Assembly (NCBI GenBank): GCA_030668875.1
Contig: DAOVER010000090.1
Span: 1 to 7,607 of the forward strand
From: Candidatus Heimdallarchaeota archaeon
GTDB lineage: Archaea; Asgardarchaeota; Heimdallarchaeia; Heimdallarchaeales; Heimdallarchaeaceae
Length of the DNA stretch: 7,607 nt
Direction: 5' to 3'
Made by a program: the position numbers and the translations under genes. The notes under the pieces are model-generated. The model saw only the letters and a program-made list of their open reading frames with translations, had not been told where the DNA came from and searched no databases. Below, piece by piece: positions 1 through 7,607 of the stretch. Within the stretch, counting starts at the first letter, position 1; every line of letters begins with the position of its first letter.

Positions 1-6
1 ATTTCA

Positions 7-40
7 TTGCGAAAAAAGAGGGGAGAGGAGAAGAAAAGTA
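7..40 (-). terminator. Possible minus-strand pyrimidine-rich terminator tract downstream of X1
   Basis: Plus strand reads TTGCGAAAAA...AGAAAAGTA and is purine-only from 11 to 38. It lies ~200 nt past the X1 stop and resembles 2155-2192 behind the S8 gene. Confidence 0.35.
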
Positions 41-242
41 TAGCAAAAGACGACTATTTTGATAATATCACCAGAAGTGTGATAAATCTAGGAGAAAAAT
101 GTCTTGATCTTATTGAACATTAGTCATCAGTAATTAAGTGATTACTAAATATCCTAATAGATTATAGAATTGCTTCAAATTAGCATAAAACAGGTCTATT
201 TAAAACAAATTTCGATTTAGTGAGTTGCATGCTCTTTAGGGA

Positions 243-1682
243 TTAAATAATTATACTGTTATACTCTCTTTTGACAAGAATAATTCGTAGGTTTATAAGG
301 AAGGAGAATAAAGTGTCAGAATGTTCCTTAGCATAACAGTGTATGAAGTCAGGAGAGCGAGAAAAAGAACCAGAATCAAACATCTGATCTAACTCTGAAA
401 AGGTTATCCTATTGTAGAAAACTTGCCAAGGTTCGTTTCCATAGTATCTGTTCCATACATAATGAAAATATTTTTCACCTTTTTCGCCATGAGCATATGC
501 TTCAGAAAAATTAGGCGTGGTAGTTAATCGCACTTCTTGAAAAACTGTGCCATTATATTTCCCTAAGAAGAGGTCTGTATGGGAATCCAGAAGAGAGGGA
601 AAGCGAGAGTAGATGAAAAGATAACTTTCTTTATCTAATTCAAATATAGATTCCTCAATAAAAAACCATTGACCTGGAAAAGTAGTAATCTCTTTAGTGA
701 CAGAATAGGTTGAATTAAGAAAGGTTGTAACAAAAAGCCTACTAATATTATTAACCCTACCGCTTTCATAATGAAATACATCAAATCCCTCATTTCTTGG
801 AATTATAGCAATTGGGAACCTGGGAGGATAGCACTCTCCCAATATATACAGTCGCCAACCTTCAACAGGCCAACAAATTGCGAGATAAGTATAGCTTTGT
901 ACACTATCGATTCTTCTTTCCCAAAGAAGAGCAATAGTTGAATTCATGATTTTAAAATCTCCAGGAGCTTGTACATCGTGATCAGTTATTTCTGGAAAAA
1001 TCTCATGCATGAAAGTAGCTTGTTTAGAACTGGAATTGTATATAACAGGTGTATTAACCTTAGGAGTGGTACCATCATCAATATATGGAGGTTGATAGAT
1101 AAAAGCAATTACTATATCACCAGTTCCTGAAAAAAACCAATTTAGCAGAGCACTTCGAGCTAATGTACTAATGTTAAGAGGTAAATAATCAAAATCTGGA
1201 TGATCTTCCCAAGAGTTATTGGTTATTTTTAGAATTTCTCCTAATTGAAAATCGAAACCACTGTATGCATAGATGTAAATAATGGGGCATTTTTCAGAGT
1301 CCAAAGCTATTCGAACCTGGTAGAAATCACCTGCAATTCCCCACTCAAATCTAGGTAAACCATAGAACGAATCATTGTTAAAATTTAAAATTCCATAAAT
1401 AAGATTGTCATTTACAACTACATCTCCATATTTTGAAGAATTCGTTGAGCAGAAATGAATTATATCATCACTTTCTAAGATTATGTCAGAAACTGAACCA
1501 TTCCATAGTGGATTAGGATAAATACGATTGATAAGAGCATCATAAAAACCATTGGTGTTGTTTATATGATTGTTGTTGTTATTTTGTGGAGGTGGTTGAA
1601 AATAGTAGTGCAAAGAGACAGCTATAACACTAAGACTCACAACTATACAGCTAGTAATGATGATCTTCCATCTCTTTCGCAT
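243..1682 (-). CDS. Family-X protein 1 (X1): N-terminally membrane-anchored, probably extracellular and glycosylated, beta-rich (possible beta-propeller) protein of unknown function, 479 aa
   Basis: ATG with AGGTGA 5 nt upstream and a TAA stop. Basic N-terminus plus hydrophobic helix (RKRWK-IIITSCIVVSLSVIAVSL) and many N-x-S/T sequons. Colinear similarity to 4145-5593 (YPNxLWN, IHFC, TPVIYN, FPEI, PGDFK, PIAIIP, YESGxxNNISRL, TDLxLGKY). The fold call is an inference. Confidence 0.85.
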   Translation of the reverse strand: MRKRWKIIITSCIVVSLSVIAVSLHYYFQPPPQNNNNNHINNTNGFYDALINRIYPNPLWNGSVSDIILESDDIIHFCSTNSSKYGDVVVNDNLIYGILNFNNDSFYGLPRFEWGIAGDFYQVRIALDSEKCPIIYIYAYSGFDFQLGEILKITNNSWEDHPDFDYLPLNISTLARSALLNWFFSGTGDIVIAFIYQPPYIDDGTTPKVNTPVIYNSSSKQATFMHEIFPEITDHDVQAPGDFKIMNSTIALLWERRIDSVQSYTYLAICWPVEGWRLYILGECYPPRFPIAIIPRNEGFDVFHYESGRVNNISRLFVTTFLNSTYSVTKEITTFPGQWFFIEESIFELDKESYLFIYSRFPSLLDSHTDLFLGKYNGTVFQEVRLTTTPNFSEAYAHGEKGEKYFHYVWNRYYGNEPWQVFYNRITFSELDQMFDSGSFSRSPDFIHCYAKEHSDTLFSFLINLRIILVKREYNSIII

Positions 1683-1686
1683 TCAG

Positions 1687-1716
1687 TCACCTATATTATT
1701 ATATTTGTTTAAATAC
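1687..1716 (-). promoter_or_regulatory. Putative TATA box and Shine-Dalgarno motif of X1
   Basis: Minus strand: GTATTTAAAC (1716-1707), then AGGTGA (1692-1687), CTGA and the ATG. Confidence 0.45.
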
Positions 1717-1819
1717 ATTAAAGTATTTTGAGTCTTAAATTGAACTAAGTTAAATCTTGTTATTTCACTCATTTAATATCTACATTTAGCTGTTATTCAG
1801 ATTTCAACCCTCTAGTCTT

Positions 1820-1885
1820 TTAGGAAAGACCTGCAATATATTCAAGCATATCGTATACGTCAAGAGAACCGTATCCAACTCTATA
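1820..1885 (-). pseudogene. 3'-terminal fragment of a second S8 peptidase gene (S8')
   Basis: Translates YRVGYGSLDVYDMLEYIAGLS*, versus YRVGYGSLDVYDMLEYVNNLS* at 2275->2210. Identity is 18/21 aa and 52/66 nt, and both end in TAA. Confidence 0.92.
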
Positions 1886-1886
1886 G

Positions 1887-1893
1887 GTTAACA
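1887..1893 (-). other. Fusion junction TGTTAAC, identical to the first 7 nt of the IS481 termini in this window
   Basis: Lies where family-X similarity ends (GTA GAA AAT, 1902-1894) and S8 similarity begins (TAT AGA, 1885). Interpretation as an IS footprint is inference. Confidence 0.45.
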
Positions 1894-2059
1894 ATTTTCT
1901 ACAGTCATATCAGATATGATACTAGTATCCTATAATGAATTAGGATAAAGGTATAAATCGCCATCAGTTTTTCTTCTTAAAAGAGATAATGGTAAAACTA
2001 CTGCAATCACTAGTACAACTACTCTCACAATCGTAGTTCTTTCTAACTCCTTTTTGCAT
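1894..2059 (-). pseudogene. 5' fragment of a third family-X gene (X3)
   Basis: MQKGVR, +1 frameshift, then RTTIVRVVVLVIAVVLPLSLLRRKTDGDLYLYPNSL*DTSIISDMTVEN. It matches X2 YLYPNALWNASIQSDMYVEN at 14/20 positions. TAG at 1932-1930 replaces the conserved Trp. Confidence 0.9.
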
Positions 2060-2089
2060 TCATCCACCTTGACTTAATTATATATTTTT
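2060..2089 (-). promoter_or_regulatory. Relic promoter and ribosome-binding site of X3
   Basis: AAAAATATATAA is identical to the 12-mer upstream of X2 (4102-4113). AGGTGGATGAATG resembles AGGTGACTGAATG at the X1 start. Confidence 0.5.
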
Positions 2090-2160
2090 AATATTTGAGA
2101 GTTTGTATAATAATTTCCTATCTATTTGAAGCGAATTTGTTGGTGCACTTGAATTTGCGA

Positions 2161-2203
2161 AAAACAAAGAAAAAAGAAAAAAGAGAAAAGTATTTCTTTT
2201 CTC
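2161..2203 (-). terminator. Intrinsic terminator of the S8 gene
   Basis: Minus strand: 8-bp stem GAGAAAAG-aaata-CTTTTCTC (2203-2183) immediately followed by a long T-rich tract, starting 6 nt after the stop codon. Confidence 0.75.
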
Positions 2204-2209
2204 ATTTTA

Positions 2210-3484
2210 TTACGAAAGATTGTTAACATATTCTAGCATATCATATACATCAAGTGATCCATAACCAACTCTATATGAATAAAATGTCGTATATTGCCCC
2301 AAATTACCAACTATAGGTTCGCCAACCTTGTTCCAAATTAATTTGTCTGGATCATTTCTTCCATTAGGATCGTTTTCACAAGAATATTTTATACATGCAA
2401 AGAAATCAAATTTTGTTAGCGGACTGCTAGGGGTATTTCTATATTTTATTCTTGAAGTCAAATATGCGGCTGCAGCAACTTGAGGTACTGCGTAACTTGT
2501 ACCAGTATCTTCATAGAACTCTAAATATCCATTATTGTCAGAATCACACATAAGATCAATTTCAAATCCTGGAGTCGCTAGATTAACTGTTGCGTGGGAA
2601 AAACCTTGGCCTTGCAGATAACGACTACCTACATATAGTCCACCAGTTGTTTCTGAGATACATGTTGACATCCTATCAATTTTGTGTGAAGATGTGTGAG
2701 CATCATAAGAGTATATGCCACCTACCCCAAATACATCACTATCCCCTGCTGGATAAGCTAATAAGTTTTCTAATTGATGTGCACCTTCAGGACTGTTTCG
2801 TGTCTCACTATCTGCATTTCCAGATATTGAAACAAGAATACATTTTTGTTGATTTACTAGAACATCAATTTCTTCTGACCAGTGATTTGTGTTACCATCA
2901 AATGACATTGAAATTACTTTGTATTTTCCAGAGGAATGTTGATTATTCCAATTGATAATTCTTTGTAGCTGTTGTTTAATAATATTTGAATCAGGAGCAC
3001 CATATTGAGTTCCAATAAACATAGTAATGCTGATTTCAATGTTTCCATAGCTTTCAAGCAATTGAATCATCAAACTTGTAATCATTGTTCCATGATGATA
3101 ATTATAATTTCTATCTATAGCATTATTTCTGTTCCTATAAGCCCCGTTATAATCAACAAGCATTAAATTTACCCAATCTCCATATTCGTTATAAAAATGT
3201 GTCCAAGTTGTTTTATCTAATCCTGAATCTATAATTGCTATTCTCTCTGCATTCAGGTTATATCTTAGTTTTGAATTGTGTTTTTGAATTGCTTTATCTA
3301 TATTGATCCAATTAACTACTTCATCTGGATCTCCTTCACCATCACTTGGTATACGTGTTGAACCTGCATACTGAATTTCATCTTCTGAATATCCATGGAT
3401 TCCTATAGGGCTAATGTCTAAGATTGTCATACTTCCATAAATCATCAGAACTAATACAATAGTTATTGTTTTATTTCTCTTCAT
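2210..3484 (-). CDS. Secreted or membrane-anchored S8 family (subtilisin-like) serine peptidase, 424 aa
   Basis: Catalytic motifs IAIIDSG (D86), HHGTMITS (H131) and GTSYAVPQVAAAA (S330); oxyanion SGN (N223); YPA and ATPG motifs. N-terminal basic plus hydrophobic signal segment; AAGGAGA upstream. Confidence 0.93.
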   Translation of the reverse strand: MKRNKTITIVLVLMIYGSMTILDISPIGIHGYSEDEIQYAGSTRIPSDGEGDPDEVVNWINIDKAIQKHNSKLRYNLNAERIAIIDSGLDKTTWTHFYNEYGDWVNLMLVDYNGAYRNRNNAIDRNYNYHHGTMITSLMIQLLESYGNIEISITMFIGTQYGAPDSNIIKQQLQRIINWNNQHSSGKYKVISMSFDGNTNHWSEEIDVLVNQQKCILVSISGNADSETRNSPEGAHQLENLLAYPAGDSDVFGVGGIYSYDAHTSSHKIDRMSTCISETTGGLYVGSRYLQGQGFSHATVNLATPGFEIDLMCDSDNNGYLEFYEDTGTSYAVPQVAAAAYLTSRIKYRNTPSSPLTKFDFFACIKYSCENDPNGRNDPDKLIWNKVGEPIVGNLGQYTTFYSYRVGYGSLDVYDMLEYVNNLS

Positions 3485-3490
3485 AATTCA

Positions 3491-3554
3491 TCTCCTTCTC
3501 TTTTGATTCACTGAAATTGTGAATCTAAAATATTAGGTTTTTTAAATATTTAAA
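3491..3554 (-). promoter_or_regulatory. S8 upstream region: SD motif, 7-bp inverted repeat and palindromic TATA-like element
   Basis: AAGGAGA (3497-3491); GATTCAC-N7-GTGAATC (3505-3525); perfect 14-bp palindrome TTTAAATATTTAAA (3541-3554). Confidence 0.45.
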
Positions 3555-3561
3555 CTTTACT

Positions 3562-4076
3562 TGACAACTTGATATTAAAGATTCTCTCTGGGTGGAAGAG
3601 CAGAATCAACATCTCTGTCTCTTAACCATTCTTGATGACTATTCCCGCTTCCTCTTGGAGAGTAGACTCTACCCCCATCCTATCACCCAGCAAGAGATCT
3701 TGACGAGGTTACACCACTGCTTACAGTTTTATAGTCGTCCCAAGCAAGTTCCAACCGATAATGGGGCACAGTTCCACTCTATGCAGAGAGGAACAAGTAC
3801 CTTCACCCGTGTGCTCGCTCAAAAGGAGTGAAACATATCCGCAACCGTGTCTTCCATCCTGAGACTTGTGGGAAAGTAGAGTGTCAGCATGGGACTACCG
3901 TCAGAGAGCTGAAGAGGTTAAGGTTAAAGTATTGCAACACTGACCTCCGACGCTATAAGGACTACTATAACTCCTTCCGCCCTCATCAAGGAATAGGTCT
4001 GCAAACCCCAGGTGAAAGATTTATGAACCACTCACCAAAAGATACCTTCCCCAAAAGTGTAACCGATCTTAGTTGA
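3562..4076 (+). pseudogene. IS481-family transposase catalytic-core pseudogene
   Basis: *QLDIKDSLWVEEQ...DDYSRF...TDNGAQF...(net -1 frameshift near 3811-3825)...HPETCGKVE...YYNSFRPHQGIG..TP. TGA at 3562-3564 sits at the Trp of the LWQxD motif. Confidence 0.9.
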
Positions 4077-4083
4077 GTTAACA
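4055..4083 (+). repeat. Right terminal inverted repeat of IS-a
   Basis: Reverse complement TGTTAACTCAACTAAGATCGGTTACACTT matches the IS-b right end (5672-5700) at 25/29 positions. Confidence 0.85.
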
Positions 4084-4097
4084 AAACTGTAGATTGC

Positions 4098-4144
4098 AGA
4101 AAAAAATATATAAATGTATTGAGAGATTATTATTGAGTGAGGTA
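4098..4144 (+). promoter_or_regulatory. Archaeal-type BRE/TATA promoter and SD-like motif of X2
   Basis: A purine run AGAAAAAAA precedes TATATAAA (4107-4114), 30 nt before the ATG at 4145. GAGGT lies just upstream of the ATG. Confidence 0.6.
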
Positions 4145-5593
4145 ATGCAGAAGAATCTGAGAATGGCTATCGCAATTATGATTATGATAGGTATAAGTCT
4201 TGCGATTGCTTTGCCAATATATTACCTAGTTATAGTACAACCAGAAAAACCATTTACTGATAAATATCTATATCCCAATGCATTATGGAATGCAAGTATT
4301 CAATCTGATATGTATGTAGAAAATGATGACAAGATTCATTTCTGTTTCTCTAACACTATAACTGATTTCGGAGACGACATAGACTTGATCTATACCAGAT
4401 TAAATCTCAAGGAAGACACCATAGCTTTCATTCCAAGATACAATTCAATAATGTTAGTTACTTTTCTAGATATAAGAATAGGATTAGACCCACAAGACAA
4501 TCCTTTCATTTATAGTTATACAAGGGATGGATTTGGATTCTATATGGGGGAGGTTTTAACTGTAATTAATAATACCTGGGAGGAATATCCAGTTCTAGTA
4601 AATGTTCCCTATAATTGTAGTTCAGGGGTAAGAGAATACGTCTATAACTGGCAATTTTTGGATTCCGGTGATGTTATGTTAGCATTCATCTCCCGACAAC
4701 TATTCCAAGTAAATGGAAGTACCACCCTAGTTCAAACACCAGTTATTTACAATGGCACAGAAAACAATGGAATATTCATGCATACTGTTTTTCCTGAAAT
4801 CGTTGAGGATTTTTCGGTATCTCCTGGGGATTTCAAAGTTGTGAATTCTACGATAGCTTTGTTATGGGGGAACTATATAAATGAAATGAATATGCACCCT
4901 TATTTAGCTATAAATTGGCCGGAAAACGGTTGGGAGCTTTATAAATTGGGAATTGGTAATACTCTCCAATATCCTATTGCGATAATCCCTTCTGATAATA
5001 CATTTAATGTGTTTTATTATGAAAGTGGGCATTCAAATAATATCAGTCGACTTTATCAAACACGAGTTTTCAACTCTACTTACTCTACTACTCAAGAGAT
5101 TGCAAGTTTTTACGGTAACCTAATTTTTCATGATGATGCTATTTGCATTCTTAAAGATAATATTTTCCTTTTTGTGTATTCAAGAAGAACCTTTCTAAAT
5201 TATAATACTCAAACTGACCTCTACTTGGGAAAATATGATGGAGAGAAATTTGAGGAAATTAGATTGACACATACATTGAATCACTCTGAATTTTATGCTC
5301 ACTGTGATATAAGTGAGAACTATTTCCATTATGCGTGGTCTAGTTTCAATGATGAAGCTAAAACTGATCTCACTTGGGGACCTAGTTCGATTTACTACAA
5401 TCGTATTCCAATATCTGAAATAGATTCTTTTATTATTAACGGATCTAGTCTTCGTTTAACTCCTGATTTGAATTCTTTATTTCAGAAGAAATACAGCACC
5501 ATTTCAATCTCTTTAATTGTATTGGTTCTCTCTACTAAGAACTCAGAAAAAATCTCCTTGAATTCCTATAATACAAAAACAAGCAGTGAATAA
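4145..5593 (+). CDS. Family-X protein 2 (X2), paralogue of X1, 482 aa from the likely true start
   Basis: The ATG at 4145 (MQKNLR + hydrophobic helix) aligns with the X1 and X3 starts and lies downstream of the TATA box. The ORF-track TTG start at 4094 is upstream of that TATA box. Motifs and sequons are shared with X1; TAA stop. Confidence 0.85.
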   Translation: MQKNLRMAIAIMIMIGISLAIALPIYYLVIVQPEKPFTDKYLYPNALWNASIQSDMYVENDDKIHFCFSNTITDFGDDIDLIYTRLNLKEDTIAFIPRYNSIMLVTFLDIRIGLDPQDNPFIYSYTRDGFGFYMGEVLTVINNTWEEYPVLVNVPYNCSSGVREYVYNWQFLDSGDVMLAFISRQLFQVNGSTTLVQTPVIYNGTENNGIFMHTVFPEIVEDFSVSPGDFKVVNSTIALLWGNYINEMNMHPYLAINWPENGWELYKLGIGNTLQYPIAIIPSDNTFNVFYYESGHSNNISRLYQTRVFNSTYSTTQEIASFYGNLIFHDDAICILKDNIFLFVYSRRTFLNYNTQTDLYLGKYDGEKFEEIRLTHTLNHSEFYAHCDISENYFHYAWSSFNDEAKTDLTWGPSSIYYNRIPISEIDSFIINGSSLRLTPDLNSLFQKKYSTISISLIVLVLSTKNSEKISLNSYNTKTSSE

Positions 5594-5633
5594 TTCGGTT
5601 ATACATAGTATAAAGTAGGAAAGAACAAAATTT

Positions 5634-5657: not shown

Positions 5658-5671
5658 CATGATTCCTGCTC
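5656..5671 (+). repeat. Target-site duplication of IS-b, left copy (16 bp)
   Basis: GTCATGATTCCTGCTC, identical to 6676-6691 and directly abutting TGTTAAC. Confidence 0.95.
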
Positions 5672-5700
5672 TGTTAACTCAACAGACATGGGTTACACTT
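5672..5700 (+). repeat. Terminal inverted repeat (right end of IS-b)
   Basis: TGTTAACTCAACAGACATGGGTTACACTT; contains the transposase TGA stop (5681-5679). Confidence 0.9.
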
Positions 5701-6611
5701 GAGGGCATATGGAGAGTCAAGGGCACATTCATGAATCTTTCACCAGGAGTTTGAAGGTTTATTCCTTGATGAGGGCGGGAGAAGTTATAATAGTCACGAT
5801 AGCGACGGAGGTCAGCGTTACAATAAGCTAATCCTAACCGGTTCACCTCCCTGATGATTGTACCATGGAGACGTTCGACTTTCCCACAAGTTTCGGGATG
5901 ATACACTCTTGCTCTGATATGGTCAATAATATTCGTCTGACACCAACGGGTGAAGGAACTTATTCCTCCTCTTTGCGGGTGGAAGATGGCACCATTATCG
6001 GTTAAAATCTGACGGGGAGTGCCATAGGTTTGCATAGCCTGGTCCAAGAGCTGGAGAATGTCCCAAGTCTTAACAGGACGGGGAAAGAACTTTGCTCCTA
6101 CACAGAACCTTGAGTGGTCATCAATAACACTCACAAGGTGAAGGTGTTGTCCTTGCTCTTCTACCCAGAAAGGTCCCTTGATGTCAATCTGCCAGAGGTC
6201 GTTAGATTCTTCTCGTTCGAACCTTTTCACCCTCTTATAAGCTTTCTTTGTTGTTCTTCACTTCTCCTCCCCCTCTTGTTGGAGCGTCTTCTACACTGTC
6301 GTGTGAGAAAGGTTTATCCCTTCGAGTGTTAGGAGATAGGCTATCTTAATAATATTGAAGCCATAAGCTCTCCTGAGAGCGAGAATACGGCTTTTATTCT
6401 CTTCTGTCACTTTCCTCCTAATGTTCTTGGGTCGTGAGGACCTTTCTTTGTACCATTCTCCTGCGGGGTTCTCATTATGCCTTCTCATCCACTTATGGAT
6501 GAATTTCCTGCTGACCATATACGCTTTAGCTAGTTGGGTAACTTTCGACCCATTCAAAGCTTTTTTAACCACAATTTTTCTAAGTTTTACCAGGTTACGG
6601 TTGGGATTCAT
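5679..6611 (-). pseudogene. IS481-family transposase, one 310-codon frame interrupted by TAG (6293-6291) and TGA (6260-6258)
   Basis: The ORF-track pieces 6611->6291 and 6230->5679 are in the same frame (offset 381 nt). The linker reads HTTV*KTLQQEGEEK*RTTKKAYKRVKRFE. N-terminal HTH (VTQLAKAYMVSRKFIHKW); DDE residues in WQID, TDNG and GKVER. Confidence 0.88.
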
Positions 6612-6646
6612 GTTTGATCACATACCCTCCGTAACCCAATATTTTA

Positions 6647-6675
6647 AACTGTTACCAAGGTGGGTTTAGTTAACA
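6647..6675 (-). repeat. Terminal inverted repeat (left end of IS-b)
   Basis: Minus strand TGTTAACTAAACCCACCTTGGTAACAGTT; 22/29 match to the right end. Confidence 0.88.
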
Positions 6676-6691
6676 GTCATGATTCCTGCTC
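6676..6691 (+). repeat. Target-site duplication of IS-b, right copy (16 bp)
   Basis: GTCATGATTCCTGCTC directly after ...GTTAACA. Confidence 0.95.
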
Positions 6692-6999
6692 GATATAAGA
6701 TATATACTAAAAAATACAGTAGTAAAATAAGGCAGAATAGGCAAGGAAGGTGAACAACAATCGCTTCCAGCGTCTTATTTCTTAGGAATACCAAAGCTTC
6801 TTATTTCTTGTAATAATCCTTGGAAAGAATGCTCCTGCTTCTTCATGGACTTTCCACATTGGAGTTTTTGTTAATCCCATAATTATAACCTACTAATTTT
6901 ATTTTAGTATCTGGTATCGATTTTTCTTTGCAGATAAAAATGTTATCCATTGTAGTTATTCTTCCGAATAACCTTTTATTTTTCAATTGTTTCTACAAC

Positions 7000-7607
7000 T
7001 TATTCAAGTGTTGTTAATTCATGCTCTGCTTTTAGCGCTTCCTCAAAATGTAATGCAATATCTCTAAAGTGTAAATTTCTTGTCAAGGAGCTGTAAGCTA
7101 ACAATCCAATTTGTGATTGCTTCACATATTCCTTCAGCAATTTTTTTGGTACACCTATTGTTTCCACTGTATAAGTAAATTCCTTTTTGGGATCATTTCC
7201 TCCTCTAAACATCATCGTTTGAATTATTATCGGCCATAATTTATATTCTAGTATCTCTTTCCATCTATCTTTTACTACTACTATATAGAACCAGTATATT
7301 TCTTGATTTCCCTTCAGAGTAATTGTCTTTTTCTCTCTAAAGATGTTCACTGATAAGTAGTTTAATGAATGAAATATTGTTTCTATCACTTCTGCTTTCT
7401 CTTTTGATATTTTCCCTTTGTTTAAATAATTTCTATATTTTACCAATAGCTCAATCATCTTCTCCTGTAGTCCCTCATTGTCAACACCATCACCTATCAT
7501 ATGTAGTTGATTAAGTAATGTAACGGAAATAATATTCGCGCTTTTGAAATCCTTCTTGTTAATGTGTTCTATTGCTAAAGAAATATTGTTCTCCAATGCT
7601 TCTGACA
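7000..7607 (-). CDS. Hypothetical protein, probably cytoplasmic, with 5' end at or beyond the window edge
   Basis: The frame stays open upstream of the TTG at 7596 (xTG TCA GAA GCA TTG GAG), so a start codon may lie at 7608-7606. TAA stop; no motif recognised. Confidence 0.65.
   Translation of the reverse strand, partial: SEALENNISLAIEHINKKDFKSANIISVTLLNQLHMIGDGVDNEGLQEKMIELLVKYRNYLNKGKISKEKAEVIETIFHSLNYLSVNIFREKKTITLKGNQEIYWFYIVVVKDRWKEILEYKLWPIIIQTMMFRGGNDPKKEFTYTVETIGVPKKLLKEYVKQSQIGLLAYSSLTRNLHFRDIALHFEEALKAEHELTTLE

Follow-up and report, generated by a model that had tools for sequence, protein, structure and literature searches.

The question raised by this locus is whether the gene of an S8 subtilase (S8) and the genes of an exported protein family, here called X, lie side by side by chance or belong to a conserved unit. 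The stretch analysed, referred to as the window, is the whole of contig C21 (GenBank DAOVER010000090.1; 7,607 nt) of a Candidatus Heimdallarchaeota archaeon metagenome-assembled genome (GCA_030668875.1; 3.2 Mb in 99 contigs, about 33% G+C, 92% complete). A sequence-only reading had counted two S8 and three X copies, relics included, and had proposed a duplicated two-gene extracellular unit. The layout, taken from the open reading frame (ORF) listing and domain scans of the window, contained all five pieces (S8, S8', X1, X2 and X3) at the positions given by that reading. The analyses revealed that the S8-X pair is real and conserved, but that the unit has three genes and not two, with a Pol-beta nucleotidyltransferase (NTase) gene 3' of X, and that the cassette in the window is a rearranged, partly decayed copy. 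The unit is apparently undescribed: literature searches on Asgard archaea, S8 proteases and propellers gave no description of the three-gene module or of an anchored propeller as a fixed partner, and the earlier reading had recognised no named system of this layout.

Hidden Markov models (HMMs) were built for X, the S8 subfamily, the neighbouring NTase and the NosD-like neighbours, and all fetched loci were scanned with them; linkage was counted in 30 genomes of the window's archaeal family and on metagenome contigs. Matches to the S8 subfamily occurred at 11 places in the 30 genomes, and at 8 of these the gene immediately precedes X in the same orientation, so that the enrichment of S8 neighbours beside X homologues, which the sequence-only reading had set as its check, proved to be strong. 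The 8 include every match above 200 bits that retains its 3' end, except a more distant G018 gene; of the other three places, G010:C80 has an N-terminal fragment where its contig ends, and G018 and G008 each have a more distant S8 gene. Further S8-X pairs were found on the metagenome contigs L006, L018, L020/L021 and L061, and, among matches that retain their 3' end, S8 without X was limited to the weaker, more distant G018 and G008 matches and to metagenome contig L016; a scan of JGI metagenomes with the S8 profile returned two loci only. Intact pairs are spaced by 8-38 nt or overlap, and their genes are presumably co-transcribed. The S8-linked X genes are scattered over all deep branches of the X tree (27-40% identity), which indicates that the linkage is ancestral and that S8 was lost repeatedly. 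Five X-bearing genomes have no member of this S8 subfamily, and S8 fragments persist upstream of an intact X in G026, G006, G010 and the window.

The maintenance of order, strand and spacing across a divergence of X down to about 30% identity argues that the pairing is not due to chance. That the genes travel together in a mobile, recombining island with no functional relation is very unlikely: insertion sequence (IS) copies do flank the locus and the contexts beyond the cassette differ in nearly every genome, but a passenger origin would not account for order, strand and the 8-38 nt spacing being kept over deep divergence, nor for the S8 and NTase subfamilies occurring almost nowhere else in these genomes. 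Decaying copies were also observed in relatives (G006:C1:565910-568584, G010:C107:93612-94136 and G021:C16:7124-7732), with S8 cut to 123-166 aa and NTase genes bearing one to three in-frame stops. A convergent X pair, 47-1474(+) and 1584-2168(-), on the short metagenome contig L014 indicates that X paralogues cluster together without S8 as well.

The third gene was recognised at window positions 1-120, outside the span covered by the earlier reading (243-5593). Frame 1 of this segment matches positions 222-260 of the 261 of the NTase HMM (E 6e-12) and shares 87.5% identity with the C-terminal end of the NTase that adjoins the X1 orthologue in G026, which shows that all three components are represented in the cassette of the window. 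In relatives, the NTase has 255-260 aa and follows X at -14 to 12 nt in L008, L020/G030, G003, G010:C107, G006 and L061, and at a longer gap, in a copy with a stop, in G021:C16; it is convergent with X in G026 and G010:C51, and lies directly after S8, with no X between, in L016 (1971-4185, plus strand) and L058 (G018:C101; 1748-3927, minus strand). In the genomes of the family, 8 of the 10 loci of this NTase subfamily adjoin X or S8. The S8-NTase pair of L058 is flanked by two N-anchored proteins of 465-481 aa that are unrelated to X in sequence.

Sequence analysis of the NTase showed invariant GGS / DxD / D motifs (G30-G31, D43, D45 and D76), and the L020 protein exceeded the cut-offs of PF18765 (31.9 bits; cut-off 26.9) and PF01909 (24.2 bits; cut-off 21), as expected for the Pol-beta superfamily. 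The structural model (pLDDT 83) resembled most closely Hailong HalB and the aminoglycoside and lincosamide adenylyltransferases (TM 0.42-0.53, Foldseek E 3e-5 to 1e-3), although in sequence the link is confined to the minimal NTase core. It is an ordinary Pol-beta superfamily member whose two-domain architecture is ANT/KNTase/HalB-like.

These likenesses bear on a second interpretation, in which the cassette would act against viruses or competing cells: the surface propeller would sense them or serve as a decoy, the protease would be an effector or activator, and the NTase a cytoplasmic regulator or immunity enzyme. It is the only reading that gives the NTase a role, and it agrees with the patchy occurrence of X (present in 12 of the 30 genomes of one family but in none of 52 others of the class, with several paralogues in some), with the frequent decay of S8 and NTase copies, with the IS flanks, with a fold nearest to HalB (E 3.4e-5, TM 0.46) and to aminoglycoside/lincosamide adenylyltransferases (TM about 0.5), and with weak PADLOC matches to IetS (27 bits) and PDC-S09 (22 bits). 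HalB is a negative regulator of a membrane effector (PMC13434031). The library matches, however, are far below family level and cover generic catalytic cores only. A Hailong system (HalA + HalB) was not recovered, as the NTase neighbours are S8 and a single-pass X and no HalA-like gene is present in the window or related loci; neither was IetAS, since the NCBIfam score for IetS was 21 bits, where the cut-off is 900, the PADLOC score was 27 bits, and no IetA-type ATPase gene lies nearby. Moreover, the predicted location of S8 and X is extracellular, and the roughly 5 cytoplasmic residues of X offer no visible signalling route to the NTase. We judge this defence role to be quite improbable.

The X proteins themselves form a new sequence family with a common fold. 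Clustering at 90% identity gave 7 X clusters in 5.8 billion proteins, and an exhaustive profile search of 1.84 billion representatives recovered 23 proteins, all from the X family itself. No match was found in Pfam, NCBIfam, PADLOC or PHROGs, nor to any Protein Data Bank (PDB) sequence even at E 10; the possibility raised earlier that X belongs to a known family therefore finds no support in Pfam, NCBIfam or PDB sequences. X1 and X2 are 43% identical across 421 aa (E 2e-114). Their orthologues share 96% (L013), 86% (L009-12) and about 91% (G026, DNA) identity with X1, and 94% (G021) and 76% (P0002) with X2, for which the family alignment places the true start at M18 (position 4145) of the listed ORF 4094-5593(+).

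In X, Lys/Arg residues precede a single N-terminal hydrophobic segment, after which come a variable low-complexity stalk and an all-beta domain that starts at a YPNxLW motif. S8 and X have one hydrophobic segment each, at the N-terminus (Kyte-Doolittle 19-mer value above 1.6 at residues 3-15 alone), and the cytoplasmic part of X is predicted to be about 5 residues long. The N-terminal export or anchor segments reported earlier for both families were recovered in this way, while a C-terminal hydrophobic stretch of X fell below the Kyte-Doolittle threshold and was unsupported. The two X proteins contain 12 and 10 N-X-S/T sequons, which corresponds to the 96th-97th percentile of the long ORFs of the genome, and three sequon columns are conserved in the family; X is probably located at the cell surface and N-glycosylated, the earlier label of glycoprotein having the sequon density as its one basis. 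In the stalk of X1 (window 1540-1600, residues about 28-47) and of its orthologues, a low-complexity run of Pro/Gln/Asn was observed (QPPPQNNNNNHINNTNG), and its length varies among near-identical X1 orthologues, L013 and G026 having additional Pro, a pattern suggestive of slippage-prone variation.

Structure prediction of X with AlphaFold gave an all-beta model (pLDDT 75, pTM 0.73), and VIA-align comparison with seven-bladed propellers gave Z scores of 20-26, with CylK, GH145, PL42, PL25, PLL lectins, integrin alpha and WD40 proteins among the matches; at Z 22-26, 300-340 residues were aligned. X is accordingly predicted to be an N-anchored seven-bladed beta-propeller. Asp-boxes (S-x-D-x-G-x-x-W) were absent from X even with a loose pattern and the BNR Pfam models were unmatched, while BNR-named neighbours in language-model space scored at most 0.86 and provide a lead only. 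Invariant polar residues are E70 and D72 in the first strand and E383, E394, Y405, H407, Y423 and R425 in the last blade. Profile-profile comparison of X with other N-anchored S8 neighbours of 460-510 aa (L058, L059 and L006) gave no homology (probability at most 2.7%). At L059 (G008:C63), a distant S8 member (5907-7160, minus strand) is divergent from a 460-aa N-anchored protein (7301-8680, plus strand) that has no sequence similarity to X (hhalign probability 2.7%); in its Atlas model it is a propeller (TM 0.6-0.67 to BNR-like clusters), and in language-model space it lies nearest to the clusters that are also nearest to X1. The protease-propeller pairing may extend past the sequence-defined X family.

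The fold matches raise the possibility of a surface digestive module, in which X would be an enzyme (a propeller of the glycoside hydrolase or lyase type) or a lectin acting on extracellular polysaccharide and S8 an independent secreted protease, co-expressed for the breakdown of polymers but not acting on X. In accordance with this, the Z scores were 24.6 for GH145, 23.7 for PL42, 22.5 for PL25 and about 23.5 for PLL/BP39L lectins, and the invariant residues of X (E70, D72, E383, E394, Y405, H407, Y423 and R425) include His, Tyr and Arg, the types of catalytic residues used by beta-elimination lyases. The comparison with GH145/PL24/PL25/PL42, in which H407, Y405, Y423 and R425 are among the invariant residues of X, was made at fold level only (Z 22-25, Foldseek TM about 0.44), and such Z scores are generic for propellers, with those of WD40 and integrin propellers nearly as high. 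Proteins of the NosD/beta-helix type are often encoded nearby, but the genome has 51 NosD-type ORFs and this proximity may be due to chance. Further, the confinement of X to one archaeal family and its frequent pseudogenisation would be unusual for a nutrient-acquisition enzyme, and the NTase is left unexplained. This interpretation is, in our assessment, unlikely. The NosD genes were also considered as a fourth member of the cassette, which was rejected as unproven given the 51 such ORFs. The window's own genome shows a large expansion of NosD/right-handed beta-helix ORFs (e.g., C61:7929-9614 and C82:2051-4201), and in relatives NosD-type genes adjoin X or S8 in L001, L016, L020, L046 and L050, which, given their number, may be coincidence.

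The S8 protein of the window is a divergent yet regular member of the subtilases. It matched PF00082 with 35.2 bits (cut-off 21.8; residues 82-343; Pfam E 1e-8), and D86 (DSG), H131 (HHG), S330 (GTS) and the oxyanion N223 (SGN) are invariant across 10 members of the subfamily. An inhibitor_I9 prodomain, which in classical secreted subtilisins has about 70-80 residues, was not matched at E 0.1; the distance from the signal segment to the catalytic Asp is no more than about 55 residues, and S8 is without a C-terminal anchor. Its conserved C-terminal tail, YSYRVGYGSLDV.DM.EY, is specific to this subfamily.

Taken together, the cassette is a lineage-restricted three-gene accessory unit, S8 -> X -> NTase, of one Heimdallarchaeial family. 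Its core component would be X, displayed on the cell surface as a type-II-anchored, N-glycosylated propeller, while S8, an apparently active subtilase exported by its N-terminal signal with neither prodomain nor anchor of its own, would be the dedicated extracellular protease for its processing or maturation; it might, for example, cleave within the variable stalk that links the membrane anchor to the YPNxLW propeller start and so release or activate the ectodomain. The NTase, with an ANT/KNTase-like build and probably cytoplasmic, would be a co-inherited third component. In the genome of the window, the S8-proximal X3 is dead, and X1 derives from a second unit whose protease has been reduced to 21 codons, and has kept its own upstream region. 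That S8 processes X as a dedicated protease is the most likely of the readings considered, with a probability somewhat short of even.

The opposite direction of service was also considered, with X acting for the protease as a membrane tether, as a foldase replacing the missing prodomain, or as an inhibitor or immunity protein. S8 has no prodomain or anchor whereas X is anchored, the genes are tightly coupled, and some S9 peptidases, in which propellers gate or hold proteases, are among the fold matches of X; nevertheless, many loci retain X although their S8 has been lost or broken, contrary to what such a role predicts, and we consider it distinctly improbable. As X is kept where S8 decays and S8 rarely occurs without X, a protease serving X is favoured over X serving the protease.

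Several points weigh against processing of X by S8. The linkage counts come from related genomes, which are dependent samples, and overstate the number of independent events. About half of the X loci have X without S8, and since X survives there, processing by S8 cannot be essential for X. The closest relative of the window's S8 (P0008, 76% identical) is followed by an NTase with no X between. Contact of S8 with X is a presumed one; co-folding of S8 (35-424) with X1 (45-445), each with its alignment, scored 0.00, which speaks neither for nor against binding. It is hard to see where a cytoplasmic NTase would fit in a scheme of protease and substrate that is wholly extracellular. Finally, the S8 and X1 of the window are not an original pair, and the 527 nt of relics between them mean that the two genes may be transcribed separately.

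Further analyses revealed how the copy in the window came to differ from the conserved arrangement. The features are listed in Table 1.

Table 1. Genes, relics and insertion sequences identified in the window
Feature	Position	Strand	Description
NTase 3' end	1-123	+	Last 40 codons and stop, cut by contig end, convergent with X1
X1	243-1682	-	Intact, 479 aa; N-terminal signal anchor, low-complexity stalk, predicted seven-bladed beta-propeller
X1 upstream region	1683-1819	-	AT-rich TATA-like stretch, GGTGA ribosome-binding site
S8' relic	1820-1885	-	Last 21 codons and TAA of second subtilase, same subfamily
Junction	1886-1893		8-nt deletion or recombination joint, X3 start to S8' end
X3 relic	1894-2059	-	First ~55 codons of third X gene; ATG and GGTGG ribosome-binding site
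S8	2210-3484	-	Intact divergent subtilase, 424 aa, N-terminal signal or anchor segment
Truncated IS copy	3565-4083	+	Integrase-core part, two ORF pieces; end 4083 abuts X2 segment
X2	4145-5593	+	Intact X-family gene, 482 aa counted from M18 of listed ORF
Full IS copy	5671-6676	-	30-nt terminal inverted repeats, helix-turn-helix (HTH) ORF and integrase-core ORF; end 5671 faces X2
ORF without assignment	7000-7605	-	At least 201 aa, open at contig end

The 527-nt interval between S8 and X1 contains two relics, S8' and X3. The S8' relic is identical to the S8 C-terminus at 18 of 21 residues, shares 79% DNA identity with 2210-2275 and corresponds to positions 401-424 in the HMM of the subfamily (E 2e-10). 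X3 matches positions 10-64 of the X HMM (E 2.3e-6) and is 77% identical to X2 at 4259-4324; it is damaged by one frameshift and by a Trp to TAG change within the YPNxLW motif. At the junction, homology to X2 stops at 1894 and homology to S8 begins at 1885. The sister species G026 is 91% identical over window 1-1885, with homology ending exactly at 1885, and in it a C-terminal S8' fragment of 165 aa and unrelated genes lie upstream of the X1 orthologue, while the other X1 orthologues are without an S8 remnant and remain homologous up to 1804 or 1840. Since G026 keeps the 165-aa fragment and the other X1 orthologues have no remnant, S8'-X1 is a separate unit with a decaying protease, joined in the lineage of the window to the X3 start behind the intact S8. 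The S8-then-X order reported to occur twice is indeed seen twice, but its second occurrence is the remnant of this separate unit. A simple local tandem duplication of a 390-bp S8-end/X-start junction was rejected: the S8 tails are only 79% alike, the X3 start resembles X2 and P0004 and not X1, and S8'-X1 is a separate locus in G026. The region upstream of X1 (1683-1819) is kept with X1 in relatives that have no S8 upstream, with homology reaching window 1804, 1840 or 1885, and probably acts as the X1 promoter.

The placement of X2 opposite S8 was found to be of another kind. X2 lies between two facing IS ends (4050-4083 and 5672-5705), the contigs of other IS copies diverge exactly at the IS ends flanking X2, including 4083, and DNA homology of the X2 region to relatives is limited to 4084-5607; elsewhere, X2 orthologues adjoin NosD-like genes or stand alone. 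As the IS ends bracket X2 and the homology stops there, its position opposite S8 is secondary, and X2 was probably brought there by an IS-associated rearrangement. The divergent X2 beside S8 described earlier is present in the window but lies outside the conserved pattern. The IS copy at 3565-4083, identified by rve and rve_3 matches, by tblastn to the full IS transposase and by the terminal repeat at 4050-4083, is 5'-truncated and frameshifted. The element is about 1 kb long, and its HTH ORF (6291-6611) and integrase-core ORF (5679-6230) are separated and not fused. Outside the window, the genome has at least 4 near-identical copies (on C57, C73, C11 and others), and many of its contigs end within a copy of the element.

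Contigs from other samples showed that the S8-proximal X3-type start heads an intact X gene in relatives. In a cold-seep DNA run that shares about 94% identity with the window, one contig leads from the NTase end across an X1-type body into an X3-type start and on to S8, jumping from 1511 to 1939 (427 nt, 1512-1938, are skipped) at homologous in-frame codons of the YPNxLW motif. A metatranscriptome contig, which covers 1906-2293 and 4313-5409 only and serves as evidence for these parts alone, joins the S8 end and an X3-type start to an X2-type body at 1906/4313, positions on opposite strands in the window, and has 2 additional nucleotides after 2037, which would re-establish the reading frame that is broken in the window. 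Full-length proteins with an X3-type N-terminus were looked for, and none was recovered. These joined forms, from runs X5 and X15, suggest that X paralogues recombine or invert at the conserved 5' YPNxLW motif; being contigs, they leave a residual chance of chimeric assembly, and a single contig from an RNA library is no proof of transcription. One could go further and regard the S8-proximal X start as an expression site into which propeller bodies are swapped by recombination at the YPNxLW-coding motif, so that the surface glycoprotein varies; if true, such a mechanism, combined with a fixed protease and NTase, would represent a novel type of surface-variation or conflict system in archaea. 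We give this idea very little probability. For an invertible or shufflon-type system, the window contained no recombinase, its only transposition genes being IS transposases, and the contigs of the source study presented one orientation only, rare variants being invisible in contigs.

The arrangement in the window is not an assembly artefact, as contigs from other samples of the same study span 1004-3717 without mismatch and S8, the relic ORF and X1 occur in the window order in four runs. IS copies on C57, C73 and C11 share 93-97% protein identity with the window IS, and, together with a paralogue of the last ORF on C77, they indicate that the contig belongs to the genome. That ORF, 7000-7605(-), had no match in Pfam, NCBIfam, PADLOC or PHROGs; its paralogue, 88% identical, begins contig C77.

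These results define X as a new family of exported proteins, predicted to be membrane-anchored propellers of seven blades and probably glycosylated, and with it a dedicated, very divergent subtilase and an NTase that accompany it as one cassette. The X family is confined to one archaeal family, X is dispensable and the function is a proposed one; within this scope, the cassette offers concrete points at which surface proteolysis, the display of glycoproteins and surface variation between strains can be tested in Heimdallarchaeia, and it is relevant mainly to Asgard surface biology.

Compared with known systems, each component has recognisable relatives. Among solved proteins, those nearest to S8 in sequence are 4zoq and 7y6m, both termed 'intracellular serine proteases' (PDB profile E 1.8e-7), with which S8 shares the Asp-His-Ser triad in subtilase order, the oxyanion Asn and the lack of a long I9 prodomain; unlike these PF00082 relatives, it is very divergent and has an export signal and a family-specific C-terminal tail. 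The NTase shares with AadA/ANT(9)/ANT(4')/KNTase, LinB and HalB an N-terminal NTase core with GS/DxD/D and a C-terminal helical domain, at about 255 aa, but, unlike in Hailong, has no HalA-type channel partner. X resembles GH145, PL24/PL25/PL42, the PLL lectins and the integrin alpha head in predicted fold, ectodomain size and extracellular setting, but differs from them in its low identity (5-12%) and in having no profile match or Asp-boxes. Operons with a protease next to its substrate are known in bacteria, and subtilases are encoded beside the protein that they process in the case of the clostridial Csp proteases with pro-SleC and of the leader peptidases of lantibiotics and cyanobactins with their precursors. 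As in these systems, the S8 gene is kept directly beside one gene for an exported protein, apparently in an operon; unlike in them, the partner is a 480-aa anchored propeller of a new family and not a zymogen or peptide precursor, its cleavage is a presumed one, the NTase is a third fixed member, and the hosts are archaea.

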